Shown: in pieces, positions 34,627 through 52,299 of the stretch
How the letters are laid out: each line of letters starts with the position of its first letter
Numbering within the stretch: the first letter of the stretch is position 1
Source of the DNA: an uncultured Thermoplasmatales archaeon
GTDB taxonomy: Archaea; Thermoplasmatota; E2; DHVEG-1
Assembly: GCA_964627915.1 (NCBI GenBank)
Contig: CAZVKY010000002.1
Coordinates: 1,727-65,726, forward strand
DNA length: 64,000 nt
Direction of reading: 5' to 3'
Program-made: the position numbers and the translations under genes
Notes under the pieces: model-generated
What the model was told of the DNA's origin: nothing
The model's database searches: none
What the model saw: the letters and a program-made list of their open reading frames with translations, nothing else

Positions 34627-36612
34627 TTAGACTGTTTCTCGATGGGTTAAGAGTGTTTTTGCTTTTTCCGTGAGATGAACTACACGGGATTTCCCATATT
34701 TTTTGGTGAAAACAAGGCCTTCATCCACCAGTTGTTTCACTCGTTTTGAAGCAGTATAATAGACGATATTAAATTGTGACATTATTTTTTTCAGAGAAAC
34801 CAATGCATTTTTCTTGTTTTCCTTTTCGATAAAAGTTAGAATATCAAATAATTCATCCTTTATTTTGATGTCCTCGACCTTTTTACTGGGTAATGGTTCA
34901 AATTCATTCTGAAGTATTGCTAATTCATCTGAAGCAAACAATTGCGGATCAAAATATAATAAGAGCATAATTGAGGAATCTGATATGATTTCATTGATGT
35001 CATATAATGTGGTTAATACTTCATCAAATGTTGTTGTGCTCAAAAAATAATGAAGACCATCTACAAACAACACTGTTTTTTCATTTGTTGTGGCATATGT
35101 TTTGATTTCATCTAAAAATTCAGCCGGTGTGGATATGGTTTGATACTCTTTTAATGGGTTTTTTCGAATAAATATTGGTTTGATTTTATCTGTGGATAAG
35201 TTTTCTTTTAGTTTTTTTGGATGTGATCTGGTGATATAAACACCATTGAAATCAGAGAAAATAAGATTGGAAAATAAATCAAGGGAGCTTCTATTGTTTT
35301 TTTCAGCGATGATATAACTATGGCCAATAAGCAGATTATGATGGCTTTCCCAATCATAGGTAATATCTTTTCCAACAAAGACGATTCCTTTTTTTTCATG
35401 ATTAGTATGAAGTGGGGCACAAGATAAATTCAGTATTCTTTTTGAGTAATCCTTGGTAATCATCACCAGTTTCTGAGAGATAACTTCTTTTGATTCATGA
35501 ACGCTATCAATAATATCTTTTAACGTCTTTGAATCATCAACGAAAGGAAGTTTGGTGATGTATCTTCCGTAGACATCCTTTTTTTTGTAACCGGTTAATC
35601 TTTGAGCAGAAGAATTCCAATATTCTACTCTATTACAGCTATCAAGAGCGATAATGATTTCTGAAGTGCTGTTAATGATGTTTTCCACTGATGTTTGCAT
35701 TTCTTTTGCTTTTTCCTCTGCTCTTTTCCGTTCAATGATTTGTTTTTCAAGTGATTCATTCGTTTCTCTTAGTTCCGCGGTTCTTTTTTCTACCCTTCGT
35801 TTCAGTTCTTTTGAAACCTTTTGTAAAACCTTGTATCCTTCTCGTTGCTCAGTAACATCTTGTATGTAGAGCACAAAACCATCAATGGATCCATCCAATT
35901 TTTTGATGGATGACGCATTGATATCAATAATCATTTTTCTCCCATCTTTACTAGTGAGAATTAGATCTTGAATTTCATTTAAGTGATTTTTTTTCTTTTC
36001 ATTATTTGTTAAAACTGAAAAAAGGGAGATTTTTTCGTTTGTTTCACCGTTTACCACTTGTATGCAGGTATCTGCTGACTGATTGATGACCTCTTTTTTT
36101 CCAATGCCAATAAGTTTTTCTGCAGCGGCGTTTACAAAGGTTATTTTTTGGTTTTCATCAGTTGTTATTACAGCATTTCCCATGTGTTGTAACGTGTTGA
36201 GCATCCATTGATAATGTTGTTTTACTTTTTTCTCCATTTTATTTTTATGTAATGCTACTTGAATATTGCTGTCCAGTTCTTTGATGTTGAATGGTTTCAT
36301 GACGTATCCATATGGCTCTGTTTTTTTTGCTCGTTCAAGGGTTTTTTTATCCCCATAGGCAGTAAGAAAAATAATCGGGATATCAAATTGATCATGAATC
36401 CTTTCAGCTGCTTGGATACCATCCATTTCTTCACCTAATTTAATGTCCATGAGCACTAAATTTAAATCTAATTGTTCTGCTTGTTGGATAGCATCTTCAC
36501 CAGTTGAAATGGTGGCGGGAACATCATATCCTAGTTTTGTTAATTTTTGTTGCAAATCTTTAGCAACGATGGTTTCATCTTCAACGATGAGAATCTTTTC
36601 TTTTTCATTCAT
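34627..36612 (-). CDS. response regulator with REC, two PAS domains, an uncharacterised C-terminal module and winged-helix DNA-binding domain
   Basis: REC domain (ILIVEDETIVAKDL...LVLMDIKLGEEMDGIQAA...IIFLTAYGD). PAS-like segments (ITTDENQKITFVNAAAEKLIG; NRVEYWNSSAQRLTGYKKKDV). Coiled-coil linker. ~150-aa alpha/beta module (possibly DUF835/KaiC-like without P-loop; unverified). C-terminal wHTH (ALVSLKKIMSQFNIVYYTASKRVKQLVDEGLV). 4-nt overlap with the upstream histidine kinase. Confidence 0.85.
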   Translation of the reverse strand: MNEKEKILIVEDETIVAKDLQQKLTKLGYDVPATISTGEDAIQQAEQLDLNLVLMDIKLGEEMDGIQAAERIHDQFDIPIIFLTAYGDKKTLERAKKTEPYGYVMKPFNIKELDSNIQVALHKNKMEKKVKQHYQWMLNTLQHMGNAVITTDENQKITFVNAAAEKLIGIGKKEVINQSADTCIQVVNGETNEKISLFSVLTNNEKKKNHLNEIQDLILTSKDGRKMIIDINASSIKKLDGSIDGFVLYIQDVTEQREGYKVLQKVSKELKRRVEKRTAELRETNESLEKQIIERKRAEEKAKEMQTSVENIINSTSEIIIALDSCNRVEYWNSSAQRLTGYKKKDVYGRYITKLPFVDDSKTLKDIIDSVHESKEVISQKLVMITKDYSKRILNLSCAPLHTNHEKKGIVFVGKDITYDWESHHNLLIGHSYIIAEKNNRSSLDLFSNLIFSDFNGVYITRSHPKKLKENLSTDKIKPIFIRKNPLKEYQTISTPAEFLDEIKTYATTNEKTVLFVDGLHYFLSTTTFDEVLTTLYDINEIISDSSIMLLLYFDPQLFASDELAILQNEFEPLPSKKVEDIKIKDELFDILTFIEKENKKNALVSLKKIMSQFNIVYYTASKRVKQLVDEGLVFTKKYGKSRVVHLTEKAKTLLTHRETV

Positions 36613-39062
36613 TGATTTTTCCCTCCATTGTTCCTTGGAATTGTTAAGGAAATGTGTGCTCCCTCCTCATTGGTAATTTCTATGTGTCCTTTTAGTTGCT
36701 GTATTAACATATTGACCAGTTGTAGACCAAGTGTTTGATTCTGTTGAGGATCAAAAGATTTTGAAAATCCAATTCCATTATCTTTTATACTGATGAGATG
36801 ATCTTTTTTTGATGAAGTTATATTGATGGTTATTATTCCTTTTCGTTGTTGAGGAAATGCATGTTGGATCGCATTTGATACCAGTTCATTGATGATCAGT
36901 CCACAGGAGATTGCTTTTTTAAAACTGATACTGTCTTTATTATTTGAAACGGATATTGAAATTTGTTTATTTGAGGTGTTATATGTTTGTTCTATGTTAT
37001 CTGTGATATTTTTGATATAATCACTAAGGACAATGGTTTTGAAATCATCTGATTGGTAGAGTTGTTCATGGAGAAGCGCCATCAAATAAATTCTATTTTT
37101 TAATTCCGTGTAAAATTTATCATTGTAACATTTTCGCTCATTTTCTTTTTGCAGATCGATGAGACTAGTGATAATCTGTAGATTATTTTTCACTCGATGA
37201 TGGATTTCTTCGATGAGAATTTCTCTTTGTTTAAGAAGTTGAGTTAATGTTTCATGTGTTTTTTTTAATTTTTTTTCAGTGTTTTTTATGGAGCTAATAT
37301 CACGTTGAATAGTAAGATATAACTTGTTTCCATTTAAAGAAATAGTATCAACATCAAGTGAGGCATGATATGTTTCCCCACTTTTCCGTTGAAGTTTTAT
37401 TTCATAATTTCGAAGTGATTTTTTATCTTTGAGAATGGTTTTTAACTTTTCTCGATCTTTTTTGCAGAGATAATGGTTTCTAAAATCAAAATCATCTTTA
37501 CTATAACCCGTGAGTTGTTTCATGGCCGGATTCATATCAATAATGGTACCGTTCTCATCGACAAGACCAATACCAACGGGAGCTGCCTGTATTAATGTTT
37601 GGTATTTTTGTTCTGATTCCCAATATTTTTCTCGAAATCGTTGTTGCTTAGTGATATCTTTAGAAAGCCCAATAATCCCTATTGTTTCCCCATTTTCATC
37701 TTTTAATGGAAGTTTATCGCTTTTTATCCATGCTTCCTCATTTCCATTGGGCAAAGGTTTGACAATGTTGTATTTTGCTTTTCCAGACTTAAGTACTTCC
37801 AGGTCGTCTTTATAGTATTGATCTGCGTATTTTTTAGGAAAGATATCCAAAGCTGTTTTTTCTATCACTTTTTGTTTTGGAATCTTAATTATGGAGCAGA
37901 ATTTTTTGTTTACTTTTGTGTATCGAGCTTTTGTATCTTTGAAATAGATGGCTGATGGAACGGAATCTAAAAGAGTTTGCATATCTTTTTTCTGTTTATC
38001 AATCGTTTTTTTTGCTTTTTTTCTTTCAGTGATGTCACTGATAATAGCCGCGGCTCCAATAATATCATTGGTTTTATCCTTTAATGGATAATAATAAACT
38101 TTTAAATCGCGTTTGCCTTGCTTTGGATAGGTTTTATTCATTTCAAATTTAACTTTTTTCCCTTGAAAACAGGCTGATAGTGCGGGTTTAATTTCACTGA
38201 ATGTTTTACGGCCTAGAATGTTAGATATATGAGTACCTAACACCTCTTCTTCAGTAAGATTATGATATGTTAAAAATGGTTTATTTGCTAGGATATATTC
38301 AAAGTTAGTATTCACTGCCGTAACCATATCCTGAGCATTTTCCACGGCTAGTTTATATGTTGATAGCATTTGTTTTTGTTTCTTTCTTTTTTGATATTCA
38401 TCAGCATGCTCCAAAGTGTTTTTGATATGATTTGCAAAATGTTTCACTGTTGATAAAAAATAGTTACCGAGTTCATTTGAGCCTATTGCTAACGCACCAA
38501 TGATGTCGTTATATTTTTTTAGTGGAGTGATGATGCATTGTTGTCTTTCATCATCATAGCCTAGGAGATGAATAATGGCTTTGCCGATTTGTTTGGGAAG
38601 TAATTCTAATGGAATTTTCTTGGTTGGCACAACAATGGTTTCTTGATCATAAATGACCTTTTTATATGATTCAGATTTAGAAAGGGGTATCCTATATTTT
38701 TTTGTTGTAATTGCGGCGGTTTTTTCTGCCTTTTTCAATCTTTTTTTATTTTCTGTTGTGCCAAAAATAATAAGATGTTTTTTATCTTCTGATAAAAGGA
38801 GAATGGCAAGAGAGTAATTTGAGAGGTTACGGAATTGATCTAATATTTTTTGAAATGTTTCTCTTTGAGAATCCCTATATGATAGTTTCGTTGAGATAGT
38901 TTCTGTAAATTGAATTAAATCGATAAGATCCTGCAATGATTGTGGTGAGGGATTCACGTTATCATTTGTTGATTGAGATGTTTTTTTATTTTCATTTAGA
39001 ACGTTTTGTGCCATTAATGATGATAATTCCATAAGCTCTTCCCCCAGTTTTTCCGCGACCAA
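36609..39062 (-). CDS. multi-sensor histidine kinase (GAF + 3 PAS + HisKA_2 + HATPase)
   Basis: N-terminal GAF-like region, three PAS/PAC segments, HisKA_2-type H-box HHRVKNNLQIITSLIDLQ, ATP-binding blocks (NELVSNAIQHAF, DNGIGF, GLQLV). Co-operonic with the response regulator. Confidence 0.9.
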   Translation of the reverse strand: MVAEKLGEELMELSSLMAQNVLNENKKTSQSTNDNVNPSPQSLQDLIDLIQFTETISTKLSYRDSQRETFQKILDQFRNLSNYSLAILLLSEDKKHLIIFGTTENKKRLKKAEKTAAITTKKYRIPLSKSESYKKVIYDQETIVVPTKKIPLELLPKQIGKAIIHLLGYDDERQQCIITPLKKYNDIIGALAIGSNELGNYFLSTVKHFANHIKNTLEHADEYQKRKKQKQMLSTYKLAVENAQDMVTAVNTNFEYILANKPFLTYHNLTEEEVLGTHISNILGRKTFSEIKPALSACFQGKKVKFEMNKTYPKQGKRDLKVYYYPLKDKTNDIIGAAAIISDITERKKAKKTIDKQKKDMQTLLDSVPSAIYFKDTKARYTKVNKKFCSIIKIPKQKVIEKTALDIFPKKYADQYYKDDLEVLKSGKAKYNIVKPLPNGNEEAWIKSDKLPLKDENGETIGIIGLSKDITKQQRFREKYWESEQKYQTLIQAAPVGIGLVDENGTIIDMNPAMKQLTGYSKDDFDFRNHYLCKKDREKLKTILKDKKSLRNYEIKLQRKSGETYHASLDVDTISLNGNKLYLTIQRDISSIKNTEKKLKKTHETLTQLLKQREILIEEIHHRVKNNLQIITSLIDLQKENERKCYNDKFYTELKNRIYLMALLHEQLYQSDDFKTIVLSDYIKNITDNIEQTYNTSNKQISISVSNNKDSISFKKAISCGLIINELVSNAIQHAFPQQRKGIITINITSSKKDHLISIKDNGIGFSKSFDPQQNQTLGLQLVNMLIQQLKGHIEITNEEGAHISLTIPRNNGGKNQ

Positions 39063-39161: not shown

Positions 39162-39183
39162 AAAAAGAGAGGGGGAGGGGGGG
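39162..39183 (-). terminator. terminator-like C-rich tract followed by T5 run downstream of the archaellin-like gene
   Basis: Minus-strand sense reads CCCCCCCTCCCCCTCTCTTTTT starting 23 nt after the stop at 39206. Oligo-T tracts are the usual archaeal termination signal. Also a G5-A-G7 homopolymeric tract on the plus strand. Confidence 0.3.
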
Positions 39184-39205
39184 TTGATGGTAATGAGGAT
39201 TATAT

Positions 39206-40084
39206 TTAAAGTAATGGTATAATCCGATGGGCAAACACTGCGGGGGCGGTGATATCATATACACCTGGGGCTCCTGTTTCTGGTTGTAGTTCACCAGAGA
39301 TACTCTCTCTCGGTGAGAGCCCGCCTTCATCTGTAATTATCGCTGAAAGATTAACGATGACAAAGATTCTATCACCGCTATTCATTCCCTGGGTTGAGGT
39401 TATTGAGTTATCTGGGTCATGGATAGATATCACGCCGAATTTTGTTTTGCTGGATTCACCAATTATTGTTTCATCACTTCCTGGACTAACAGGTGTTTTG
39501 AATACGCTTTTATTGTCTGTGTTAACTGATGCGACGAGATTCTCATCAATGGTGAGAAGTGACAAATTATTACAAAGGGTGGTAAGAGTGCAAAGACTTA
39601 GATCAATGTCGTTTGAACCTGCTCGTGGTCGAACAGTTAAAGCAAGATGGGTGATTTCAGTTTTGTTTGTGTTGGTAAAACCGGTTATATCTGTGATGAC
39701 TAATCCTGCAGAAACCTCTCGAATTGTTTGGGTAGCAACATTTTGTGCTTTTTGCTGAAGGCTTTCACTTGCTTGAATGATGACACTAGCAGCTACAGCT
39801 GCAACAAGAATCATGGCGATGAATACGATGAGTGTTCCTATTCCTACCATGGCTTGATCGTTTTTTTCAATTGATTTTTTGTGTTTTTGACTTGGTTTGA
39901 TAGCAATAATGTTTTCTATTCGTAATGCACCAAAACCTTGATTTGAATCGATGATGACAAAACCTGCCCTGTAGTCCACGCCTTCAAGGATTCCATTGAT
40001 GACTTTGACGTTTTGTTCACCTGGTTCACGTGTCACTATTTTGCTGGGTTGACCGACCAGCTTATCCAAATGTTTTTTTTCCAT
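39206..40084 (-). CDS. archaellin-like protein with ~78-aa N-terminal extension preceding the class III signal peptide
   Basis: Residues 79-110 MVGIGTLIVFIAMILVAAVAASVIIQASESLQQKAQNVATQT are the canonical archaellin N-terminal helix. The C-terminal beta domain is archaellin-like (FGVISIHDPDNS...GDRIFVIVNL). Residues 1-78 (MEKKHLDKLVGQPSKIVTREPGEQNVKVINGILEGVDYRAGFVIIDSNQGFGALRIENIIAIKPSQKHKK) have no in-frame ATG/GTG/TTG within the last 45 codons before the cleavage site. This part is small and beta-rich with weak Sm-like motifs. Confidence 0.7.
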   Translation of the reverse strand: MEKKHLDKLVGQPSKIVTREPGEQNVKVINGILEGVDYRAGFVIIDSNQGFGALRIENIIAIKPSQKHKKSIEKNDQAMVGIGTLIVFIAMILVAAVAASVIIQASESLQQKAQNVATQTIREVSAGLVITDITGFTNTNKTEITHLALTVRPRAGSNDIDLSLCTLTTLCNNLSLLTIDENLVASVNTDNKSVFKTPVSPGSDETIIGESSKTKFGVISIHDPDNSITSTQGMNSGDRIFVIVNLSAIITDEGGLSPRESISGELQPETGAPGVYDITAPAVFAHRIIPLL

Positions 40085-40445
40085 TCCATTTCACCTTCCA
40101 TTCCATTTCACTGCCCGGAAGTTTCTTTCATTCCGGTCAATGTCTTTCGTGTTAATGTTTCTCAAGAAATGGTATTTAAAGATTCAGCGTTTTTTCTTCA
40201 TTTTGAAAAAGTCACAAATTGTTATTTTGTCAGTTTTTTTGAGAAAAGACACAGATAAGATTAGATGCAGTTGTCCATTATGGAAATATAAAAAATGGGT
40301 TCTTCTATTGTTATAGCCTCATCTATCTTTTTGCCATTTTAGCATTTTCTCAACACATAAAGAATTTTTATAGAGGATCTTATTATAAAAATAAAAAGTA
40401 TTTTATATTATTAAATCAACATAAAAAACTGAGGCAACTAATATT

Positions 40446-41069
40446 ATGAAATCCTTAGTATCTTTCACAATGCTTATCATAGCAATAATTGCTGCTACTA
40501 TTATCGTTTCCTCTGCTACGCTTTATGAGGATACACAAACAACTGAAGAAATAACTGAGGAAGACCTTCAAGAAATGATTGAAACCGTTTATGATGATGT
40601 CTCTAGCTATATGAATATAGATGATATCATAGGAAAATTCCACCGGGTTCAACAGGATCGACTGATCAAACAAATTGCTATTCAAATTCACCCTCAATTT
40701 TCAACAAATATCAAACTTTCAGAGCTTATGATTGAGCTATCTAATGGCAATCAAATCATTTTTTTATATCCGAATGGATACTGTGCAGATATTTCTAATG
40801 AAACACTATTCAACCATGGTTTATGGGGGGATTTAGGGAATAGTTCCTTTGGAATTTTAAGTATATTTGATGAGGATAATTCAATGAAGCAGTCCCATCT
40901 GATAAATCAACATTCAGATCGCCTCTTCATCATATTTAATGTACCGCCTTCATTAAAGCTTCAAAGAGGTGATACTATCAAGATAAATCTGTATCCGTCT
41001 ACAGGCGTTAAAAAAGAGCTGGATATAAAGATACCATTTTCGGTTGATCCTGTCCTTAGCCTATGGTAA
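40446..41069 (+). CDS. archaellin-domain membrane protein (FlaF/FlaG-like or minor pilin-like)
   Basis: N-terminal hydrophobic anchor MKSLVSFTMLIIAIIAATIIVSSA. C-terminal region (SFGILSIFDEDNS...RLFIIFNVPPSLKLQRGDTIKINLY) parallels the C-terminal beta-sandwich of the archaellins in this window ([12 protein letters not shown]...[10 protein letters not shown]). Lacks the GIGT archaellin motif. Confidence 0.55.
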   Translation: MKSLVSFTMLIIAIIAATIIVSSATLYEDTQTTEEITEEDLQEMIETVYDDVSSYMNIDDIIGKFHRVQQDRLIKQIAIQIHPQFSTNIKLSELMIELSNGNQIIFLYPNGYCADISNETLFNHGLWGDLGNSSFGILSIFDEDNSMKQSHLINQHSDRLFIIFNVPPSLKLQRGDTIKINLYPSTGVKKELDIKIPFSVDPVLSLW

Positions 41070-41215: not shown

Positions 41216-41695
41216 TTGTCAACTATGATGTTGTCGGAGGGAAATGCTATGGCTAACAATGCAATAATTGTCCGGGAAATATTCGATACACTTTACAAAA
41301 TTTCCAGTAGAAAAACAACTGAGGGGTACACCTATTACCTTATGCAATCACTAAAAGAAGACTTGCATGATCAATATCCTTTTTTATCATCATTTCATTT
41401 TGTAGATATAAGATTTAGTGAAGAAGAGACTTTTGTTTATTGGAAAAAAAATGTTGAAAAAATAAAAACTGAGAAGCTTTGTTATGCTCTCAAAGATTAT
41501 ATCCAAAAAGTAAATCAATCACTGGGAAAGAATGCTGGTCCCTTCTTTTTTAAGGAGATTTCATCAAGGATTAGTGACCCTTCAAATGAGATTATGAAAT
41601 CATATGGTGTCGATTTGATGATTATGCAACTTGAATATGAAATTGATACTTTAGAAAAAAGAATTATTAAGACAACTAAAAATCATAAACAATAG
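41216..41695 (+). CDS. hypothetical cytoplasmic protein within archaellum locus
   Basis: 159-aa ORF (MSTMMLSEGNAMANNAIIVREIFDTLYKISSRKTTEGYTYYLMQSLKED...). No recognisable family. Possible start at the internal Met MANNAI. Confidence 0.5.
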   Translation: MSTMMLSEGNAMANNAIIVREIFDTLYKISSRKTTEGYTYYLMQSLKEDLHDQYPFLSSFHFVDIRFSEEETFVYWKKNVEKIKTEKLCYALKDYIQKVNQSLGKNAGPFFFKEISSRISDPSNEIMKSYGVDLMIMQLEYEIDTLEKRIIKTTKNHKQ

Positions 41696-41931
41696 CTTAA
41701 TAGACATTATTTTTGATATAACAAATGTTTTTCTGAAAAATAATATGATATTTTTAAAGGACCCTCTTTCGTTGCATATGTATCTGCATACACTTTAACG
41801 TATGCAAATGCAAATAAACTATAATAACAGGCGGGTCTTATTTGAGGTTGCACTCTAAAAAAATCTCTATAACTTATGCACTCCAATGAAATGATAAAAA
41901 AAATAAATATGAAAAGGTGGGATGCAAAAAA

Positions 41932-42588
41932 ATGAGACGACTATTTAGAGTGTCCAACGAAAAGGATATAGGGGCCATTGGCATAGGAACGATGATTATT
42001 TTTATCGCCATGGTCTTAGTAGCAGGTATAGCAGCATCAGTTCTTATACAGACGAGTTCTCGACTTGAATCACAAGCAATGACTACTGGTGAAGAAACCA
42101 CAGCGGAAGTAGCAACTGGGCTTTCTGTTGAAAGTGTATCCGGATATGCTGCTTCTGGTAGCGATATTTCAAGATTGGCTATAGAGGTCAGACCTCGGTC
42201 GGGATCTAAAGAAATTGATCTTTCTCAGGCCATGGTGGAACTTTCTAATTCAAGTGTTAAACTGGTATTAAGTTATTCAAGTACGGATTTCATTGATACG
42301 GGCAGTATTGGCGCTGATTTGTTTACAGAAACACATTATTCTGGTTTATCTTCATCAGAATTTAGTATTATTGTCTTGGAGGATGCCGATGGTTCTTGCA
42401 CCGCTAGTTCACCAGTAATTAATCGTGGGGATAAAGTATTGCTTACGGTTTATACAAACGCTGGATTTAGTGATATAGCTGAGAGAACTGATATTTGGGG
42501 TTCAGTAATTCCTGAGGAAGGATCAGCAGGAATAATTGCGTTTCGAACTCCGGCATCATACACGGATAATATTATGAGTTTACAATAA
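41932..42588 (+). CDS. flaB: archaellin (flagellin) FlaB/ArlB paralog 1
   Basis: Class III signal peptide [56 protein letters not shown] 41932 is preceded by GGTGGG. C-terminal beta domain with N-x-S/T sequons. Track start 41917 is GTG. Confidence 0.9.
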
Positions 42589-42784
42589 GGAGGTTGATAT
42601 GAATGAATAAATTATTAAAATTATTTGGTCGTGATGAATCTGGTGCGATTGGTATTGGTACGATGATTATTTTTATTGCGATGGTGCTTGTTGCGGGTAT
42701 TGCTGCATCTGTTCTTATACAGACCAGTTCTCGACTTGAATCACAGGCAATGACCACTGGACAGGATACAACTGATGAAGTAGC
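42579..42784 (+). repeat. 206-bp segment identical to 43268..43473 (3' end of upstream archaellin gene + RBS + first 61 codons of next archaellin)
   Basis: Direct comparison: TTTACAATAAGGAGGTTGATATGAATGAATAAATTATTAAAA...ACTGATGAAGTAGC is identical in both copies, offset 689 bp. Divergence begins immediately after (AGG vs TAC). Confidence 0.9.
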
Positions 42785-43277
42785 AGGTGGTTTAAGTGTT
42801 GATGATGTGAGTGGACATGTTGAAACTGATATCGATATGCTTGGCATTACGGTGAGAGTTCGTGCTGGTTCTCCAGATATTGATTTGAACCATACCATAA
42901 TTGAGTTGACTGATGGATCTACTAAGGTTCTTTTAACTTATGATTATGCCGGTGAAACCGCAGATCCAGCTGAACATTTTAATGCAAGTATCGATGCTGA
43001 TGCAAATTTGTTTAACACTGGAAATATCAGTAATCTTGAAGATAGTCAATTCGGCATTATTGTCTTGGAAGATCCCGATAGTTCATTGAGTCATTACAAT
43101 CCTGTTATTAACCGTGGGGATAAAGTAGTATTGACTGTCGATACAGCTGCTTGTTTTTCTGAAATCGCTGAACGAACTGAGGTGACTGGTAAGGTTATTC
43201 CAGAGATTGGATCAGCAGGAATTATTTCCTTTACCACACCTGCATCATACTCAGATACAGTCTATGATTTACAATAA
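42603..43277 (+). CDS. flaB: archaellin FlaB/ArlB paralog 2
   Basis: [48 protein letters not shown] 9 nt upstream. Sequons NHT, NAS, NIS. Confidence 0.9.
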
Positions 43278-43473
43278 GGAGGTTGATATGAATGAATAAA
43301 TTATTAAAATTATTTGGTCGTGATGAATCTGGTGCGATTGGTATTGGTACGATGATTATTTTTATTGCGATGGTGCTTGTTGCGGGTATTGCTGCATCTG
43401 TTCTTATACAGACCAGTTCTCGACTTGAATCACAGGCAATGACCACTGGACAGGATACAACTGATGAAGTAGC
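43268..43473 (+). repeat. second copy of the 206-bp archaellin 5' repeat
   Basis: See 42579..42784. Confidence 0.9.
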
Positions 43474-43942
43474 TACGGGTCTTGAGGTAATCGATGTTCT
43501 TGGTCATGTAACTAGCAGCACAATTGACAATATGACTATCACGGTAAGGCCTCGATCTGGATCGAAAGACATTGATCTTTCAACAGCCGTATTGGAACTT
43601 TCAGATGGAACTAACAAATATGTATTAAGCTATGATACAACCCCAATTTTTAATACACCAGCTGCAGCAGGTATTTTTTCAACTGATGTCTTCGATGATT
43701 TAACTGCCTCAGAATTTGGGATTATCGAACTCAAAGATGCTGATAATTCTTGTAGTGGAGCTACTCCAGTGATTAACAGAGGAGATAAAGTTTCGTTGTC
43801 TGTGAATGTGACTGCGACCTTTTCGGGGATTTCAGAAAGAACAGAGATTACTGGAAGGATTGTTCCTGAAGATGGTGCTGCTGGTATTATTTCTTTTAGG
43901 GTGCCAGCATCATTGACTGATGAAGTCTATGATCTTCAATAA
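43292..43942 (+). CDS. flaB: archaellin FlaB/ArlB paralog 3
   Basis: First 60 codons are nucleotide-identical to paralog 2 (part of the 206-bp repeat). Divergent C-terminal beta domain. AAGGAGGT ribosome-binding site. Confidence 0.9.
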   Translation: MNKLLKLFGRDESGAIGIGTMIIFIAMVLVAGIAASVLIQTSSRLESQAMTTGQDTTDEVATGLEVIDVLGHVTSSTIDNMTITVRPRSGSKDIDLSTAVLELSDGTNKYVLSYDTTPIFNTPAAAGIFSTDVFDDLTASEFGIIELKDADNSCSGATPVINRGDKVSLSVNVTATFSGISERTEITGRIVPEDGAAGIISFRVPASLTDEVYDLQ

Positions 43943-44030
43943 AATGAGTTTGGAAGATTTTTTTCTTCCATTTTTTTATTTTTTTTGACCACAGCTTTTT
44001 TATTTGATTATCTGTTATGTTTTATCGTAC

Positions 44031-44696
44031 ATGATGGGATGCAGACGATTGGATGGGTCTAGTTCTATTCTTAATGCTGATTCGGCAGCGATAGGTATAG
44101 GGACAATGATTATTTTTATTGCTATGATCCTTGTTGCCGGTATTGCTGCATCCGTTCTTCTGCAGACCATGGATGGTTTGCAAGGACAAGCCATGAAAAC
44201 TGGGAAAGAAACCATGGATGATATCTCATCTGGTATAAAAGTTACACAGGTGACTGGTTTTCACCATGAAAATAAAATAACTCAAATGGCTCTTTTTCTT
44301 TCACCAATTGCTGGAAGTAGCGATATAGATCTATCGATGATAACAGTTTCAATTTCTGATGCCAATAAAAAAATTATTTTTTCGTATAATCAAAGTTGTT
44401 TTGCAGAGACAGTAACTGATAGTTTGTTTCAGTCAATTGATACAAGTCTTCTTGCATCAAATGAATTTGGATTGGTGGTGATTAGGGATTCAGATCAATC
44501 ATGTTCAGCAGCGAATCCTGTCATTGATACCTATGATATTGTTTCAATTGTAATTAACTCTACAAAAGCATTCTCTGGGCTCTCACCAAGAACCAAGATT
44601 CAGGGAGTAGTATCCCCTGAGATGGGGATGAGTGGAACTGTTCGATTCACCACTCCTGCTTGTTTTCCCGATCGAATCATCCAGCTTCAACCATAA
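44031..44696 (+). CDS. flaB: archaellin FlaB/ArlB paralog 4 (more divergent)
   Basis: [60 protein letters not shown]. Track ORF begins at ATG 44004, which would add MIICYVLSY. Confidence 0.8.
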   Translation: MMGCRRLDGSSSILNADSAAIGIGTMIIFIAMILVAGIAASVLLQTMDGLQGQAMKTGKETMDDISSGIKVTQVTGFHHENKITQMALFLSPIAGSSDIDLSMITVSISDANKKIIFSYNQSCFAETVTDSLFQSIDTSLLASNEFGLVVIRDSDQSCSAANPVIDTYDIVSIVINSTKAFSGLSPRTKIQGVVSPEMGMSGTVRFTTPACFPDRIIQLQP

Positions 44697-44734: not shown

Positions 44735-46366
44735 TTACATACCTAAATAACCACCAAGCACCATACTGATTGCTGCAGCGGTAATAGCTACTATCCAAAC
44801 CAATGGAACAAAATATAGCAGAGTAAGAAGCTTGTGGCTTCCCCTTAGCATCCGAATGGTTAATGCCATCATAAAACTGTGGATGATAAGAACGATAAAA
44901 ACGACAATGAAGGTGTTCATAAACATCTGCGGGTCCATTGCCGTAAGAATACTACCGACATCAATAGTTGTTTCAGAGAAGGGATCACCAGCCATTCCTT
45001 CAAGAAGTATTTCATTAAGATGCCGGGCGATAACAAGTGATGTGTAAGCACTAAACGCGATACCAAAGGTGATTCCAGCAAAAAGAGCAGCTGATGTATT
45101 GACTACAGAAAGTTTTTTTACTCGGAGATCCCGGATTTTTCTGATGTTTTCAGCTATCATTCTTGATGCTTTCCGTGGATTAGCTGATGCAGCGGTGGCC
45201 TGTCGAAACATTTCACTGGATCGTTGTATATGATTACTACCCGTGTCCACACCGAACCATTCCCAGGAATGATTATCATTGATTCGTGTTCGTAATCGTT
45301 TGTATAAATCCTTTACATGTCTGGTGAGAACACCATAGTCTTTTTGACTGAGATAATACACCGATTCATTGATCTTTCCACCTCGCATAGTGGAGATGGA
45401 TCCAAGTGAAGGAAGAAAAGAAAGAAAATTCCGTTCTTTTCTAGCTAATTGTTTTTCCACAAGAAACGTTTTCAATCCAGGTATAATCAATGGGGTAACA
45501 GAGAGAGCAAATAGGATTTCATAAGGAATAGAAGTAATAATGGGGAATTGAATGACATAAAGAATAAAAAGCAATATACCAAGACCAATACTTCCAATAA
45601 TCGTTATTTGAAATAAATGTCGTAAATATTTCTCTGTTTTTCCCCGTTGACCGGTGACATGCCATATTTCATCTGGCGGGATCATTGCTCTTAATAAATA
45701 TAATAGTAATCCTTCGGTTATGATAAGAAGAAATGAGGATAGATAAACAAAGGTGTTCATATCCTCCCCACCGATAACAATAGGAAGAACAATACCTAGT
45801 GACATCACAAAGATAATTGAAATCAACAGGCTTACATAGACCTCATTTAAAATAGTGATGTTTTCATTTGAGGTTTCATACATTGTTTTATAGTCCTCAA
45901 GGACTGCTTCTTGCTCAGTTTCGATGAATTCTCTAGGATCAACACCACTGTTTAAACTCTGTGAGAAACGATCCAAAAAATCCTTAAGAATTTTGCTTGG
46001 TGTTCGTTTTGATAAAAACTGAAAGCTTTTAGCAAGAGGCACCCGCCATTGCTCTGAGAGCACACTTATCTTTCTCATTTCCTCTCCCAGGCTTCCATAG
46101 GCATTGTTTCCACCAAGCATGTTTATGATGTCTTTGAGGGAGAGATCTGAGATTACTAATACCCGGAGATGAGTAATAAAAAAATGAATTTTTCCATTGA
46201 TATCTGCTTCCTTATTCTTCCAGGTGATATACGGATAGAGAATTCCAAGCATGATACACAGAAATCCACCAATAGGAAAGATGATAGGTTGGATTGCAAG
46301 TATACTTAGCCCTAATAATGGCAGAATAATAGGAAGGACACAAATAAGAATCCCTAGAGCTATCAA
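44735..46366 (-). CDS. flaJ: archaellum assembly membrane protein FlaJ/ArlJ (TadC/GspF-like)
   Basis: 543-aa polytopic membrane protein with two cytoplasmic T2SS-F-like domains and 8-9 TM helices. Last gene of the minus-strand fla operon, directly after flaI. Confidence 0.9.
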   Translation of the reverse strand: MIALGILICVLPIILPLLGLSILAIQPIIFPIGGFLCIMLGILYPYITWKNKEADINGKIHFFITHLRVLVISDLSLKDIINMLGGNNAYGSLGEEMRKISVLSEQWRVPLAKSFQFLSKRTPSKILKDFLDRFSQSLNSGVDPREFIETEQEAVLEDYKTMYETSNENITILNEVYVSLLISIIFVMSLGIVLPIVIGGEDMNTFVYLSSFLLIITEGLLLYLLRAMIPPDEIWHVTGQRGKTEKYLRHLFQITIIGSIGLGILLFILYVIQFPIITSIPYEILFALSVTPLIIPGLKTFLVEKQLARKERNFLSFLPSLGSISTMRGGKINESVYYLSQKDYGVLTRHVKDLYKRLRTRINDNHSWEWFGVDTGSNHIQRSSEMFRQATAASANPRKASRMIAENIRKIRDLRVKKLSVVNTSAALFAGITFGIAFSAYTSLVIARHLNEILLEGMAGDPFSETTIDVGSILTAMDPQMFMNTFIVVFIVLIIHSFMMALTIRMLRGSHKLLTLLYFVPLVWIVAITAAAISMVLGGYLGM

Positions 46367-46509
46367 GGGTATTAATACGGTTCGAATAAAGGCTTTTTTA
46401 TCTGGTAATGATGCGTAAGCGATTTCAAGTTCTTTAATTCCCTCAATATGGTGAACGGTTTCTTTTATCGGTAACTCATTCGTTTTTTTTGTAGATTCTT
46501 TTTTTCTGT

Positions 46510-48168
46510 TTATTCCACTGAAAATGGTAATCCCTCCGCTCCATTTCGGTAAAAACTCCAGATAGATTGTACCACATCATAGTAATCAAAGATTTCTTCT
46601 TCCACCATTCGTGTCAGGATTTGTTTTCGTAGTTCATATTCATCATAGATCTCAGCGGTATCGACATATCCAGCGTTTTTTGCGATTTTTTCCTCTAAAA
46701 TAAAACTATTTTTGTTAGCTGTGAACACATGATCATCGCTTTCAGATTTCCAATCAAATGCCCTTCGTGCCATGATACCATCGACTTCTCGATTGTATCC
46801 TTCTATTTCATCGATGGAAACACATCGTCTCATTAATTTCCCATTTCGTTCGATGGCTAATTGAATAAAGACAAAATCAAGGTTATCCATGAATGTTTTT
46901 GGAACATTGATGGGATCACCGGTGAACCGCTGAATGACTTTAGTGACATCTCCAGCATGAAAGGTGGTCATCACCGGATGCCCGGTTTGCATTGCTTGAA
47001 AAACAATGTTTCCTTCTGCCCCTCGCACTTCACCAGGGATGATATAATCAGGACGGGATCGTAATGCTGCCTTGAGTAAATCAAATAAATCAACTTGGCC
47101 TTCAGAGGGACCACTGGTTTTTGTGAGTAATCGTTGCCATACTGTATGAGGCACTTGTAGTTCAGGGGTTCCCTCTGCAGTATAGATCTTTCGTTCCGGT
47201 GGAATAAATGGGATGATCGCATTCATGGTAGTTGTTTTTCCACAAGCTGTTCCGCCGCAGAGAAAAAAACTGCGCCCATATTGCAGACAAAGCCAGAGAT
47301 AGGCAGCGATTCCCGGGCTAAGAGTTTGGCATCTAATTAATTGGGTGACGCTAATGGGATTTTCGGTGAAACGGCGGATGGTCATACTAGGTCCTTTGAT
47401 GCTTACTGCTGAACTATAGATAATGTTTCCCCGACTTCCATCTGGAAGCACTCCATCAACGATGGGTCGACCTTCACTTACTGGTGTTCCCATTCGTTCA
47501 CTCAGTATTTTTGCAAAAGCAGGTGCTTCTTTTTCAGAGACAATGACATTTGTTTTAATCATTCCAAATATTTTGTGTATGAGATGAATGGGTTCTCCTG
47601 CGATCAGATGAATGTCTTCGATGTAGGGATCACGCATGAAACATTCAATGTTTGCTCCTCCCAGCAGTTCCTTGAAGATATAATATTGTATCTTCTTTTT
47701 TTGCGGATCAGTTGCTTTAATGGTTTTTTTTGTGAGTTGAAATAGTTTGTTTTTAGAGGAATTGGTTTTTTGCACCTGTTTACTTACTATTACGTATTCA
47801 TCAATGAGTTCACTTAGGTTTTTTCTAAGTTGTTTATCAGTCACCGCACTTTTTTTTTCAATGATGTTTTCTAGGATTATTGTAAGTAATTCATCTTTTT
47901 TTTGTGTTTCTTCTTTGGTTAGTTTCGGTTCGATTGCATGATATTCTAATCCTTTTCCGTTTTCATTTGGGTAGATATGCACAAAAATAAATCCTCGAGT
48001 TAGATAGAGAATATTGATTTGTTGTTGTGATTTTAATGATGTTGAAAGGGTTGCATAAAACCCTGGCATTTCTTTATCCTTTTCTAGATTATTTAAATAG
48101 TCTTGAACATGGGGATTTTTCTGCAGAAGGTTCTTTATTTCTTTCTCACGTAATTGTGTCATCAGCAC
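46510..48168 (-). CDS. flaI: archaellum ATPase FlaI/ArlI (paralog 2)
   Basis: Walker A FFLCGGTACGKTTTMNAIIPFIPP, Asp box and His box of the secretion-ATPase family (GEVRGAEG, MQTGHPVMTTFHA). 552 aa. About 55 % identical to the adjacent upstream paralog. Confidence 0.9.
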   Translation of the reverse strand: MLMTQLREKEIKNLLQKNPHVQDYLNNLEKDKEMPGFYATLSTSLKSQQQINILYLTRGFIFVHIYPNENGKGLEYHAIEPKLTKEETQKKDELLTIILENIIEKKSAVTDKQLRKNLSELIDEYVIVSKQVQKTNSSKNKLFQLTKKTIKATDPQKKKIQYYIFKELLGGANIECFMRDPYIEDIHLIAGEPIHLIHKIFGMIKTNVIVSEKEAPAFAKILSERMGTPVSEGRPIVDGVLPDGSRGNIIYSSAVSIKGPSMTIRRFTENPISVTQLIRCQTLSPGIAAYLWLCLQYGRSFFLCGGTACGKTTTMNAIIPFIPPERKIYTAEGTPELQVPHTVWQRLLTKTSGPSEGQVDLFDLLKAALRSRPDYIIPGEVRGAEGNIVFQAMQTGHPVMTTFHAGDVTKVIQRFTGDPINVPKTFMDNLDFVFIQLAIERNGKLMRRCVSIDEIEGYNREVDGIMARRAFDWKSESDDHVFTANKNSFILEEKIAKNAGYVDTAEIYDEYELRKQILTRMVEEEIFDYYDVVQSIWSFYRNGAEGLPFSVE

Positions 48169-48175
48169 TCATTTC

Positions 48176-49798
48176 CTATAGCGAAAAAGGAAGTCCATCT
48201 TTTCCATGTCGATAGTAATTCCAGATGATGTCTACCACTTGATAATAATCAAATATCTCTTGGTCTACCATCTGTTGAAGTATTTTTTTTCGGGTATCAA
48301 ATTCTTCATAGATTTTCATGGTATCATTTAGACCAGCGGTTTTTGCAATCCGTTGTTCTAAAATGTAGCTATTTCTATTTGCTTTGAATGCATGAGTATC
48401 ATCTGCTGCATTCCATAAAAATGCCTTTCTTGAGATGATACCATCGACTTCTTTGTTGTACCCTTCGATTTCATCTAAGGATAATACACGTCGGATTCGT
48501 TTTCCTTTCCGTTCAACGGCCATTTGAATGAGGACTACGTCAAGGTTATCCATGAAGGTCTTTGGAACATTGATAGGATGACCAGTGAACCGTTGAATCA
48601 CTTTGGTAACTGATCCAGCATGAAACGTGGTAATCACCGGATGCCCGGTTTGCATGGCCTGAAAGACCACTCGTCCTTCTTCACCCCGGGTTTCACCAGG
48701 GATAATATAATCAGGTCGTGAGCGAAGACCAGCAAATAACAAATCGCTCATATCAATATGGGATTCTTTTGGACCAGTGGATTTTGTTAAAAGTTGTTGC
48801 CAAACATCATGTGGTGCTATGACTTCAGGAGTGTTTTCCACGGAATAGATTTTTTTTTCTGGTGGAATAAAAGGAATAATGGCATTGGAGGTTGTTGTTT
48901 TTCCTGAGGCGGTTTCTCCACAGACAAAAAGACTTCGACTATATTGCAGACAGAGCCAGAGGTAGGCTCCCACTGAAACATCAAAAGTCCCCCAGTTTAT
49001 GAGTTGAGTGACACTTAGTGGTGTTTCACTGAATTTTCGCACGGTCATGGTAGGTCCTTTTAAGCTGATATCTTTGCTATGAATGATGTTCACCCGGCTG
49101 CCATCAGGAAGTGTGCCATCAGCGATGGGTTGTCCTTCACTTACGGGACTTCCTATCTTTTCACTGAAATCCTGGGAGAAATCACTAGCCCAGTTTTCAT
49201 CGATGTTGATGTTTGTTTCCACCATATCAAATATTTTATGAATAAGATGAACCCGTTGGCCGGTGATGATATGGATATCCTCTAGATAGGGATCTCTCAT
49301 GAAACATTCAAGTGGTCCACCACCGATGATTTCTTTAGTGATGTCATATTCGATTTTTTGTTTTTCATAATCCGTGGTCTGGATTTTTTTCCCAATAAGA
49401 AAATTGCTTGAAATTTTTTTAGTAGTAGTTATTTCATCTAAATAATGTAAGATTGCCTGACGGATTTCCTCATCTGTTTTCACTTTTTCTCTGAAAGGAG
49501 CGATTTCAAAAATGCGTTCTAGAATTTGATTTCTTTTCTTTGTTTCTTCGATGGATAATTCTGGTTCAATGGAATGATATTCTAGGAAATCCGCTTCAGG
49601 TTTTTGATAGATATGAATAAAGACAACACCTTTTGTGGGATAAATGATGTTTGGATTTTCTATTGATTTGAGATCACGGTTTAATTCTTCATAAAATGCA
49701 GGGCGATCCATGCTCTTTTTTACTTCTTCTAGATATGCCTGCAGATGTGGGTGTTGTTCTAACAGTTTTTTCTCCTCTGCTTCGGTCATTTTCCCCAT
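48176..49798 (-). CDS. flaI: archaellum ATPase FlaI/ArlI (paralog 1)
   Basis: Walker A LFVCGETASGKTTTSNAIIPFIPP, GETRGEEG, MQTGHPVITTFHA. 540 aa with the full-length FlaI N-terminal domain. Confidence 0.9.
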   Translation of the reverse strand: MGKMTEAEEKKLLEQHPHLQAYLEEVKKSMDRPAFYEELNRDLKSIENPNIIYPTKGVVFIHIYQKPEADFLEYHSIEPELSIEETKKRNQILERIFEIAPFREKVKTDEEIRQAILHYLDEITTTKKISSNFLIGKKIQTTDYEKQKIEYDITKEIIGGGPLECFMRDPYLEDIHIITGQRVHLIHKIFDMVETNINIDENWASDFSQDFSEKIGSPVSEGQPIADGTLPDGSRVNIIHSKDISLKGPTMTVRKFSETPLSVTQLINWGTFDVSVGAYLWLCLQYSRSLFVCGETASGKTTTSNAIIPFIPPEKKIYSVENTPEVIAPHDVWQQLLTKSTGPKESHIDMSDLLFAGLRSRPDYIIPGETRGEEGRVVFQAMQTGHPVITTFHAGSVTKVIQRFTGHPINVPKTFMDNLDVVLIQMAVERKGKRIRRVLSLDEIEGYNKEVDGIISRKAFLWNAADDTHAFKANRNSYILEQRIAKTAGLNDTMKIYEEFDTRKKILQQMVDQEIFDYYQVVDIIWNYYRHGKDGLPFSL

Positions 49799-49812
49799 GT
49801 TTTTTCCTCTGC

Positions 49813-50529
49813 TTAGAAGGCTACTCCGCTGGATTCAATGGTTAATCCAACACCAGGTTTGACGGAGAAAGTGGTCATCGGTTCATATTTATGTATTGCT
49901 CCATTGAATTTTTCAAGGTAGATGTTATGAACCGTGCCCACGCCAGGCATTTTTTCTTTAGAAATTTTAAAATGAACATCGGTCATCATTTTGAACCTGC
50001 GATGGATTTCTTCATCCCATTCGGTGTGATTTGCGGTAAGAAAAATGATTTTTCCCGATCCAATTAATCGGTTGAAAAAATTGGTAAGCTCTGGAAGATT
50101 TTCTGTTGTTAGGCTTTTGTTAAGTAAGCTTGAGATTGAATCAATGAAAATGATATCATTTTCAAATAATTGAGGAAACGTTAGTAATTGTTTTAAAAAT
50201 GTTTCCCGAGGATGCGTTTCAGCTAGAGTGACCTCTGTAGATATAAAAAAGAATTTTCCTTTCATTAAGAACTGTCGGACATTATATCCAACTGATGCGG
50301 TTTGTCGGAGGAATCGTTTGATGGTAAATTGTGTTGAGATGAGCGAGCAGGTGTTTGCATTTTTTAGAAAAGAATAGCAAAATCGTTGACAGAAAATACT
50401 TTTTCCAGTTCCTTCTTCACCCTCAATAAAGATAAGGGATCCATTGGGTATTCCTATGCCAAATCGCTCAGCAAAACCATCTTTTTCACCATTTCTTTCT
50501 AAAATCAACGATTTTGCATTTCTTAACAT
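49813..50529 (-). CDS. flaH: archaellum KaiC/RecA-like ATP-binding protein FlaH/ArlH
   Basis: GIGIPNGSLIFIEGEEGTGKSIFCQRF (Walker A). 238 aa. Position between flaG and flaI. Confidence 0.85.
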   Translation of the reverse strand: MLRNAKSLILERNGEKDGFAERFGIGIPNGSLIFIEGEEGTGKSIFCQRFCYSFLKNANTCSLISTQFTIKRFLRQTASVGYNVRQFLMKGKFFFISTEVTLAETHPRETFLKQLLTFPQLFENDIIFIDSISSLLNKSLTTENLPELTNFFNRLIGSGKIIFLTANHTEWDEEIHRRFKMMTDVHFKISKEKMPGVGTVHNIYLEKFNGAIHKYEPMTTFSVKPGVGLTIESSGVAF

Positions 50530-50541
50530 GATGTCACCTTT

Positions 50542-50985
50542 TTATATTTTGAATGTAAAATCATCATCAACTCCACAGGGTCCAACAACACGGATTTGAT
50601 GGTATCCTGAGGTGATGATTGAGCTGTTAATGTGAAGCATGGTGTATTCTGAAGGGTAGAGTGAAATATTTGAAAAAGAAAAAGCGTTTGTGATGATGAT
50701 TTCTCCATCGATAAATACCTGCATTGTTTCATTTGAGGTAGTTAGTTTATTTGAACCTGTATTTCTTATGTAAAAAATATACTGATTATCTGATAAAGGG
50801 ATCATTTCAGGATCATTGATGATAGAAAATTCAGTATCCAATTGTGTTTCTACTCGTTTTCCTTTTTCATTGAATGAACCACTGATGTTAGTGGTAACAG
50901 CAACAAAAATACCAGATACTGTACCTGCGACGATAAGAGCGGCAACGAAAAATATCACATGTGATCCAGTAACACTAAAACCCAT
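50542..50985 (-). CDS. flaG: archaellum protein FlaG/ArlG
   Basis: MGFSVTGSHVIFFVAALIVAGTVSG N-terminus (MGFS start typical of FlaF/FlaG), then a beta-rich domain. Named FlaG by gene order (second of the F/G pair). Confidence 0.7.
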   Translation of the reverse strand: MGFSVTGSHVIFFVAALIVAGTVSGIFVAVTTNISGSFNEKGKRVETQLDTEFSIINDPEMIPLSDNQYIFYIRNTGSNKLTTSNETMQVFIDGEIIITNAFSFSNISLYPSEYTMLHINSSIITSGYHQIRVVGPCGVDDDFTFKI

Positions 50986-50997
50986 AGGTATCCCTTT

Positions 50998-51423: not shown

Positions 51424-51461
51424 TTTATTAATCCCACCAATTTTTATATCTTATTTGTTAT

Positions 51462-52265: not shown

Positions 52266-52299
52266 TTTTCATCCCATCCTTTTTTTAATATAATCTATT

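Follow-up and report, generated by a model that had tools for sequence, protein, structure and literature searches.

The DNA considered here (the window) is a stretch of 64,000 nucleotides from an uncultured Thermoplasmatales archaeon, covering positions 1,727 to 65,726 of contig CAZVKY010000002.1 (assembly GCA_964627915.1). Beside its archaellum (arl) gene cluster lies a reverse-oriented gene for a fused archaellin, a protein that consists of an Sm-fold domain (residues 1 to 64; the N-domain), a Lys-rich linker (residues 65 to 78), and a complete archaellin (Table 1). An earlier reading of the window from its letters alone, below called the sequence-only reading, had drawn attention to this gene. 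Its open reading frame (ORF) was recovered exactly as transcribed then, its placement between a multi-PAS histidine kinase and the archaellin cluster matches our annotation of the window, and the four canonical flaB genes have the short leaders ascribed to them (..DIG/AIGIGT, ..ESG/AIGIGT twice, and ..DSA/AIGIGT, with a slash at the predicted scissile bond).

Table 1. The fused archaellin gene, its parts, and its surroundings (window coordinates; aa, amino acids)
Feature	Coordinates	Strand	Remarks
Fused archaellin gene (Sm-fold-leader pre-protein)	39206..40084	(-)	Complete ORF, 292 aa
N-terminal Sm-fold domain, aa 1-64	39893..40084	(-)	Predicted cytoplasmic
Basic linker and leader-like motif, aa 65-78 (SQKHKKSIEKNDQA)	39851..39892	(-)	Disordered; length-variable in the family
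Predicted class III signal-peptidase cleavage site, Ala78/Met79	39848..39853	(-)	-1/+3 conservation
Archaellin N-terminal hydrophobic alpha-helix, aa 79-125 (MVGIGTLIVFIAMILVAAVAASVII...)	39710..39850	(-)	AlphaFold2 helix 79-125
Archaellin beta-sandwich domain, aa 126-292	39209..39709	(-)	Predicted extracellular; N-glycosylation sequons
Shine-Dalgarno motif GGTGA	40091..40095	(-)	6 nt upstream of Met1
5' untranslated region (5'-UTR) hairpin CATTG-A-CCGGAA / loop / TTCCGG-G-CAGTG	40109..40142	(-)	Candidate cis-regulatory RNA element
Conserved motif TTGAGAAACA	40156-40165	(-)	Downstream of TATA-like box
Archaeal TATA-like box CTTTAAATA	40173..40181	(-)	About 90-97 nt upstream of Met1
p207, divergent archaellin-like partner of the fused gene	40446..41069	(+)	Weak Arch_flagellin match, E 1e-4; NF006325 E 2e-12
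p159, small protein heading the canonical archaellin operon	41216..41695	(+)	159 aa
Four canonical short-leader archaellin genes (arlB/flaB1-4)	41917..44696	(+)	Pfam Arch_flagellin E 1e-33, 2e-30
Archaellum accessory operon arlC, arlD/E, arlF, arlG, arlH, arlI x2, arlJ	44735..53007	(-)	Pfam and NCBIfam
Multi-PAS histidine kinase	36609..39062	(-)	Pfam PAS x3, HisKA_2, HATPase_c
Response-regulator receiver, PAS x2, DUF835, and winged-helix protein	34627-36612	(-)	Overlaps kinase stop by 4 nt (36609-36612)

A search of 5.8 billion proteins gave 1302 matches, and the best 120 of these 1302, which were examined, are 288 to 331 residues long and 58 to 97% identical to the query at 98 to 100% coverage. 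The database thus holds more than 120 full-length homologues, publicly annotated as 'flagellin FlaB', 'archaellin/type IV pilin N-terminal domain-containing protein', or 'hypothetical'. When aligned, these proteins begin with a highly conserved N-terminal block, and a linker of variable length leads from it to Ala or Gly followed by M-V-G-I-G-T. A genome scan with one genome per species identified 110 relatives, and all locus counts given here refer to the best 80 of these 110. The fusion is uninterrupted in 70 of the 80 loci, each in a different genome, and there are 80 fused ORFs from these 70 loci because 13 loci hold tandem pairs in which both copies are fused. The sequence-only reading had envisaged a stop codon separating a small gene from a normal archaellin, as well as split arrangements in relatives; what we found in the related loci were uninterrupted fusions, and none with an N-domain gene beside a separate archaellin, which for practical purposes excludes an artefact.

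The start of translation is equally well defined. An in-frame TGA lies directly 5' of the Met1 codon, so that a start farther upstream is impossible, and a Shine-Dalgarno (SD)-like motif precedes the start of the N-domain in 74 of the 80 orthologous fused ORFs but the conserved -7 codon, the internal position tested, in none of 71. The +1 codon is ATG in only 21 of 71 fused ORFs; in the window gene, codon 79 (+1) is ATG and codon 72 is ATT. On these counts, translation beginning internally, either with ATG79 or with the Ile/Leu codon conserved at -7, was rejected. The earlier claim that the long N terminus is not a start-codon artefact therefore stands, although the start-free run is 42 codons rather than 45, given a GTG at codon 36, and the ATG at codon 79 had been overlooked. 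By comparison with its relatives, then, the fused gene is real and translated from Met1, with a recurrence far beyond what chance or local sequencing error would produce.

The 80 loci carry the source labels Thermoplasmatota, Thermoplasmatales, Thermoplasmata, Methanobacteriota, or Euryarchaeota metagenome-assembled genomes, or 'uncultured archaeon'. The gene-carrying genomes SG8-52-3, SM1-50, 3300003432D, and SCGC AB-540-F20 have been listed as Thermoprofundales (MBG-D) (PMC6461988), and to judge from this sampling, no fewer than 70 species of these sediment archaea, the Thermoprofundales, have kept the fused gene. In a neighbor-joining tree of mature domains (rooted on p207 and without bootstrap), the 81 fused and the 42 canonical sequences are each monophyletic, and this indicates a single ancient fusion that would have been retained ever since. 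The idea, drawn from loci of +/-6 kb, that the fused gene is the lineage's only archaellin was rejected: canonical archaellins of 215 to 225 residues are abundant in the lineage, and such short-leader genes are common on the same contigs beyond arlJ.

For the N-terminal domain, AlphaFold2 with the family alignment predicts a helix (residues 3 to 7) and strands at residues 13 to 18, 27 to 37, 42 to 47, 50 to 55, and 59 to 64, with a predicted local distance difference test (pLDDT) score of about 95. In this model, residues 1 to 64 have the N-terminal helix and the strongly bent five-stranded antiparallel sheet of an Sm fold, and the nearest folds are those of the RNA-binding proteins Hfq, SmAP, and LSm. 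The extension is thus beta-rich, as the sequence-only reading had described it. Kinship to Sm or Hfq proteins at the sequence level was rejected. No Pfam model covers residues 1 to 78, none of 62 N-domain members matched Pfam LSM (PF01423) or Hfq (PF17209) at E <= 1, a PDB profile search with the N-domain returned no Sm protein and nothing relevant, and hhalign against E. coli Hfq gave a probability of 0.7%, aligning only a 9-column G-x-I-x-x-x-D stretch. The Sm/LSm likeness noticed earlier consequently holds for the modeled fold and not for the sequence family, so that the overall interpretation offered then is partly supported, in its fused architecture and Sm-like fold but not at the level of sequence family. 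Among sub-threshold Pfam matches at E <= 1 were the RimP C-terminal SH3-like domain (PF17384; 34 of 62 members) and DUF6897 (PF21838; 20 of 62), with every individually scored member below the cutoffs (15 to 17 bits versus 26.3 and 23.9, respectively); DUF2642 and BPL_C also matched below threshold.

Only 47 proteins among 1.84 billion representatives carry the N-domain by HMMER, and they include free-standing proteins of 65 to 75 residues from the same lineage, all unannotated. By these profile searches the N-domain is a new family of its own, without a Pfam or NCBIfam model. It is also the most conserved part of the fused protein: mean identity is 78.6% in the N-domain, 74% in the core helix, 47% in the beta domain, and 30% in the linker.

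The mature part is a true archaellin in every tested respect except the leader. Pfam Arch_flagellin (PF01917) matches residues 79 to 276 at E 1.1e-28, the NCBIfam model TIGR02537 (archaellin/type IV pilin N-terminal domain) matches residues 75 to 105 with 29.5 bits versus a cutoff of 20, and the NF006325 'flagellin' model aligns from residue 73 with 184.7 bits, which is below its subfamily cutoff of 210. In the full-length AlphaFold2 model, the helix at residues 79 to 125 is followed by a beta-sandwich, and Foldseek relates the mature domain to solved archaellum filaments at E 6e-19 to 1e-16 (7ofq_A, 8rh5_A, and 5z1l_A at E 6e-19, 5e-18, and 2e-16, respectively). Ten core residues, G81 I82 G83 T84 L85 I86 F88 I89 A90 M91 (GIGTLIxFIAM), are invariant, and the hydrophobic N-terminal helix, the beta-sandwich domain, and the location at the arl cluster are those of an archaellin; identity to the flaB genes of the window is 35 to 36%. 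The stator proteins ArlF and ArlG fit far less well, with 22 bits versus a cutoff of 110 for the ArlG model and Foldseek E values of about 1e-3 to 2e-3 to FlaF/FlaG versus about 1e-19 to archaellins.

Between the two folded parts, the linker has a pLDDT below 50, and the tail beyond residue 66 is disordered in the AlphaFold2 model. Across the family, it is 12 to 35 residues long (median, 18), contains 39% Lys, Arg, or His, and is the least conserved part of the protein, yet within it, position -1 is Ala or Gly in 118 of 118 database homologues and in 80 of 80 genomic ORFs, and position +3 is Gly in 100%. Farther upstream, the fused family has acidic residues (Asp or Glu) at -3/-4, basic residues (Lys) at -5/-6, and Ile or Leu at -7, and these conserved positions from -7 to -1 resemble the canonical archaellin leaders of the lineage, which follow the pattern K-[RK]-K-D-V-[GA]/[SA]-I-G-I-G and are 7 to 17 residues long, apart from one outlier of 28. 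The fused protein therefore carries the archaellin cleavage motif of Gly or Ala at -1, Gly at +3, and charged residues just upstream, but lacks the short, unstructured, charged leader of roughly 6 to 20 residues that archaellins have: its total leader is 78 residues in the window gene and 74 to 117 in homologues. The long N terminus before a class III site, on which the sequence-only reading was built, is in this way borne out across the family. N-glycosylation sequons (N-x-S/T) number 4 to 9 in the mature part versus 0.1 in the leader.

The explanation that we favor, with moderate confidence, is that the fused protein is a conserved, specialized, and probably minor archaellin of the Thermoprofundales that is synthesized with a giant structured leader, as a pre-protein cleaved by a prepilin-type peptidase. 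The cleavage motif, the basic linker, and the sequon bias would all fit an N-in/C-out pre-archaellin recognized by such a peptidase, and the invariance of -1 and +3 inside a hypervariable linker lends support, as does the match to the canonical leaders of the lineage. According to reviews, the last leader residue is always Gly or Ala, and the cut is made on the cytoplasmic side (PMC10191384). The hydrophobic helix would insert as a signal anchor, leaving the Sm-fold domain and the basic linker in the cytoplasm and the glycosylatable beta domain outside. ArlK/PibD, acting on the cytoplasmic face after Gly or Ala, might then cut between Ala78 and Met79, after which the mature archaellin of 214 residues could join the archaellum with the four canonical ArlB proteins, and possibly with p207, while the Sm-fold leader of 78 residues (9 kDa) would be released into the cytoplasm. 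Being the most conserved part of the protein, the leader domain must have a specific partner. Two roles seem likeliest: it may, prior to cleavage, dock or oligomerize the pre-archaellin at the motor, or it may serve after release as a small Sm-like regulator, perhaps acting on a hairpin in the leader of its own mRNA.

Several observations weigh against this explanation. The characterized ArlK substrates have leaders of 11 to 12 residues (PMC10117864), whereas here a folded domain of 64 residues ends only 14 residues from the predicted scissile bond. The conserved Ala or Gly at -1 could serve peptidase binding without cleavage, or helix packing. No gene for an A24 prepilin peptidase lies within the 64-kb window; archaellum peptidase genes are often encoded elsewhere, so that their absence from the cluster is usual (PMC8978795). 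The status of the protein as a minor subunit is suggested by a single line of evidence, the co-occurrence of four canonical archaellins. Finally, the fused gene stands in or beside arl clusters in most loci, but in one complete genome the fused/p207 pair is flanked by giant Laminin_G_3/DUF2341 surface proteins and has no arl gene within 10 kb, so that involvement in the archaellum may not extend to every genome.

To the main rival explanation we assign a modest chance, namely, that the fused protein stays uncleaved, as a type II membrane protein with its cytoplasmic Sm-fold domain attached and its archaellin part at the filament base or periplasmic stator, perhaps with p207, where it might act as an anchor or as an assembly terminator that couples the filament to the ArlJ/ArlI motor. 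The anchoring of the finished filament to ArlJ is an acknowledged open question (PMC8978795). An N-domain more conserved than the filament-forming parts is what contact with conserved motor proteins would be expected to produce, the fused gene usually lies just upstream of arlC-J and not among the canonical arlB genes, and the short leaders of known ArlK substrates point in the same direction. However, a strict Ala/Gly at -1 and Gly at +3 in a hypervariable linker would be hard to explain if the site were never cut, and the core helix is as constrained as in polymerizing archaellins. In solved archaella (5TFY, 5O4U, and 7OFQ), the subunit N termini are buried in a lumen-less core, so that only the last subunit could remain uncut. 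Nine fused ORFs of one subclade have Glu at +5 (A/VVGIET). Glu5 is a hallmark of bacterial type IV pilins, in which it pairs with the free N-terminal amine, and these variants accordingly suggest a free N terminus.

The region upstream of the fused gene bears on the role of the leader. Read against the archaeal TATA consensus, its TATA-like box is probably a promoter element, and related loci share an order of elements consisting of CTTTA(A/T)ATA, TTG(A/C)GAACA, a hairpin, a purine-rich GAAA(C/T)GAAA tract, and the SD motif. The hairpin of the window has a folding energy of -12.9 kcal/mol and a z-score of -3.5, and none of 200 shuffled versions is equally stable. In 68 of 77 unique orthologous leaders, the equivalent place is taken by a hairpin with at least 6 bp, and there are 55 different 5' arms; the arms vary between species yet stay complementary, 29 stems contain G.U pairs, and the nearest relative has CTGGGA/TTCCGG versus CCGGAA/TTCCGG in the window. 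Over the 77 leaders, the median z-score is -2.2, with 57% below -2, and in 60 of them the sense strand folds more stably than its antisense counterpart (Wilcoxon p, 6e-8). These statistics (per-sequence z-scores, stem diversity, and strand asymmetry) come from phylogenetically related sequences. RNAalifold on a MAFFT alignment of 41 leaders gave no consensus structure, because the hairpin arms were aligned out of register, and the evidence for the hairpin consequently rests on per-sequence folding. An Rfam scan of positions 39000 to 42000 gave no match.

Possibly, though we consider it rather unlikely, the Sm-fold domain works, once released or while still tethered, as an RNA-binding regulator that recognizes the hairpin and purine tract in its own 5'-UTR or other arl mRNAs. 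As a proposal about what the leader does, it can go together with a cleaved pre-protein, and it would couple archaellin processing to translation. It draws on the modeled fold, on the varied yet complementary and sense-biased stems, on the failure to find a comparable structure upstream of p207, p159, or flaB1, and on the retention of the hairpin upstream of truncated N-domain-only derivatives. On the other hand, the N-domain sequence matches neither LSM nor Hfq models, the free-standing paralogues do not conserve the Sm2 arginine (R55), and Sm-like barrels also bind proteins (YaeO, Gemin6, GerQ, and WYL). The inverted repeat could likewise be a DNA operator or a generic mRNA-stabilizing 5' hairpin, and the RNAalifold result and the relatedness of the sequences count here as well. 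More speculative still is the notion that each processing event frees a folded Sm-like protein that, as such or assembled into a ring, binds either a motor component or, in its own mRNA or those of other arl genes, the hairpin and purine tract; if true, archaellin processing or assembly would thereby feed back on gene expression or on filament priming and termination.

We regard as doubtful the suggestion that, instead of contributing to the swimming archaellum, the fused protein forms with p207 a type-IV-like surface filament of their own or an adhesive tip. The two genes do form a self-contained divergent module, being adjacent in 60 of 70 fused loci (with p207 at, e.g., L018 5098-5724), the fused clade is distinct from canonical ArlB, and the genome with giant surface proteins on either side of the pair is suggestive. 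Yet the pair abuts arlC-J in most loci, no dedicated ATPase or platform genes lie alongside it, and the scores of the mature domain are much better for archaellins than for pilins or ArlF/G. Least of all do we credit an annotation or assembly artefact, whether a small upstream gene joined by a frameshift to a normal archaellin or translation from inside the ORF, beginning with ATG79 or with a rare start codon near -7: codons 79 (ATG) and 72 (ATT) of the window gene and the existence of free-standing N-domain genes would allow it, but both variants are rejected because fusions recur across 70 independent assemblies and more than 120 database clusters, because SD motifs stand at Met1 and not internally, and because the N-domain-only ORF P0192 (locus L003) proves to be a decayed fusion.

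Canonical archaellins (ArlB/FlaB, PF01917; Methanocaldococcus villosus 7OFQ and Oxyplasma meridianum 8RH5) share with the fused protein the helix with G-I-G-T at +3 to +6, the beta-sandwich head, the Gly or Ala at -1, the sequons, and the arl-cluster location. In contrast to their 7 to 17 unstructured residues, however, its leader of 74 to 117 residues contains a folded domain, and it forms a separate clade. The situation is reminiscent of the long-leader type IV pilins (T4b; major pilins of Streptococcus sanguinis), in which the class III leader is longer than usual and is cut after Gly or Ala (PMC10191384). Those leaders comprise tens of residues at most, are hydrophilic, and are not described as folded, whereas the leader of the fused archaellin is predicted to contain an autonomous Sm-fold domain, which is also known as a free-standing protein family. 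Modular type IV pilins such as PilB and PilC of S. sanguinis likewise combine a scaffold with an extra module by gene fusion (PMC8179133). Their module is C-terminal, exported, and displayed, whereas that of the fused archaellin would be cytoplasmic and excluded from the processed subunit, since it lies N-terminal to the cleavage site. Unlike Sm, LSm, and Hfq proteins (the Hfq-like MJ1435, 2QTX; E. coli Hfq; archaeal SmAP1), to which it has no significant sequence similarity, the N-domain is joined to a membrane protein. The periplasmic stators ArlF and ArlG share with the fused protein an archaellin-like beta-sandwich, an N-terminal hydrophobic segment, and the arl-cluster location, but they comprise about 140 to 150 residues and lack a class III motif (PMC8978795), and the window has its own ArlF and ArlG.

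Full-text searches of the literature turned up no description of the fused architecture and no paper connecting archaellins to an Sm-like domain, in agreement with the sequence-only reading, which knew of no such archaellin. Leaders of type IV pilins and archaellins are usually treated as short, disposable, unstructured tags, and a folded, extremely conserved domain takes that position here; that a cosmopolitan uncultured sediment order keeps a folded leader on one dedicated archaellin paralogue would be unexpected for specialists. If the leader is cleaved, the prepilin peptidase would double as the releaser of a cytoplasmic protein in step with subunit processing, and if it is not, the fused protein becomes a candidate for the missing element by which the filament is anchored to the motor. 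Should release and regulation both be true, the system would parallel in archaea the FlgM or FliW-CsrA-flagellin checkpoints of bacteria, and its prepilin peptidase would be the first known to set free a functional cytoplasmic domain. Either way, a new domain family, a conserved three-gene module, and an associated 5'-UTR hairpin are defined.

From the gene order in relatives, the three genes of this module are those for p207, the fused archaellin, and a protein with a long coiled coil between PAS domains. In the usual layout, p207(-) diverges from one or two fused archaellin genes (+), which are followed by the convergent PAS/coiled-coil/PAS gene and by arlC-D/E-F-G-H-I-I-J(+); beyond arlJ lie four convergent canonical arlB genes headed by a gene for 145 aa, with EarA further on. 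The PAS/coiled-coil/PAS gene is convergent to the fused gene in 59 loci (e.g., L018 6926-8266 (-) and L017 6928-8529 (-)) and ends about 35 to 120 nt past the stop codon of the latter. It is absent beside the fused gene in the window, where the co-directional multi-PAS histidine kinase follows instead, 143 nt downstream; this kinase is a species-specific neighbor, found also in L008, and likely forms a two-component pair with the receiver protein encoded next to it. In the window species, moreover, the fused/p207 pair lies beside p159-flaBx4 (39206-44696), while in most relatives it precedes arlC, at the opposite end of the cluster (compare L055/L087 and L088), and by this comparison its position here is a local rearrangement.

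The p207 protein is 25% identical to the mature fused archaellin. Its orthologues have an N terminus like a class III signal peptide (..GS/LGIATLILF..), which is degenerate in the window (MKSLVSFTMLIIAII..). The p159 protein has no Pfam or NCBIfam match and is 34.5% identical to the product of the 145-aa gene that precedes flaBx4 at the equivalent place in L087.

The tandem pairs in which both copies have the Sm-fold leader occur in L010, L035, L036, L044, L050, L052, L057, L060, L062, L070, L074, L075, and L081. The second copy often has Glu at +5 (A/VVGIET), and it is preceded by an upstream ORF of three codons (ATG AAA AGG TGA) whose stop lies inside the SD motif of the main ORF.

Fused and free-standing copies of the N-domain occur together in one genome (L018 and L083 of CP070712.1). 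Free-standing paralogues of 69 to 72 aa (P0231-type; L001/L083 8001-8210, L084, and L086) are found in the same genomes as the fused gene, with a different promoter; those of 69 aa have structured mRNA leaders with z-scores that are not significant. In L001 and L002, a gene for a secreted protein of 153 aa precedes the free-standing paralogue, and no conserved functional neighbor of these paralogues was found. Apparent N-domain repeats in a giant protein of 4939 aa (P0164) were spurious, as the family profile gives no match.

A different origin applies to the N-domain-only ORF P0192, which was rejected as an independent gene. In L003 (8001-8711; CP070836.1), an intact N-domain ORF of 90 aa is followed by an out-of-frame archaellin remnant and adjoins PFK and an EarA homologue, and the archaellum genes seem to have been lost from this locus. 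Further fused-type ORFs that comprise the N-domain alone (L032, L033, L049, L063, L072, and L077) keep the promoter and leader layout unchanged, with no archaellin remnant detected downstream. N-domain-only genes also lie beside arlJ with PFK between them (L085 1345-1560) and beside an arlJ-like fragment (L063 6001-6204), and the small domain thus seems able to persist alone at archaellum loci.

Related loci contain a gene of the EarA family of archaellum regulators (PF07381; L087 6917-7249, L088 6923-7255, and L003 10437-10769), about 2.1 to 2.4 kb upstream of the first canonical archaellin gene; tblastn of the L087 EarA protein against the window found no homologue. The window encodes two tandem paralogues of the motor ATPase ArlI/FlaI (46510-48168 (-) and 48176-49798 (-)) that are 57% identical and both score about 669 bits versus the FlaI equivalog cutoff of 550. 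Since archaellum clusters normally have a single ArlI, it is conceivable that the two form a hetero-hexamer or divide their labor, either between assembly and rotation or between two archaellin classes. The duplication is kept in both related loci examined (L087 14072-17397 and L088 15086-18437).

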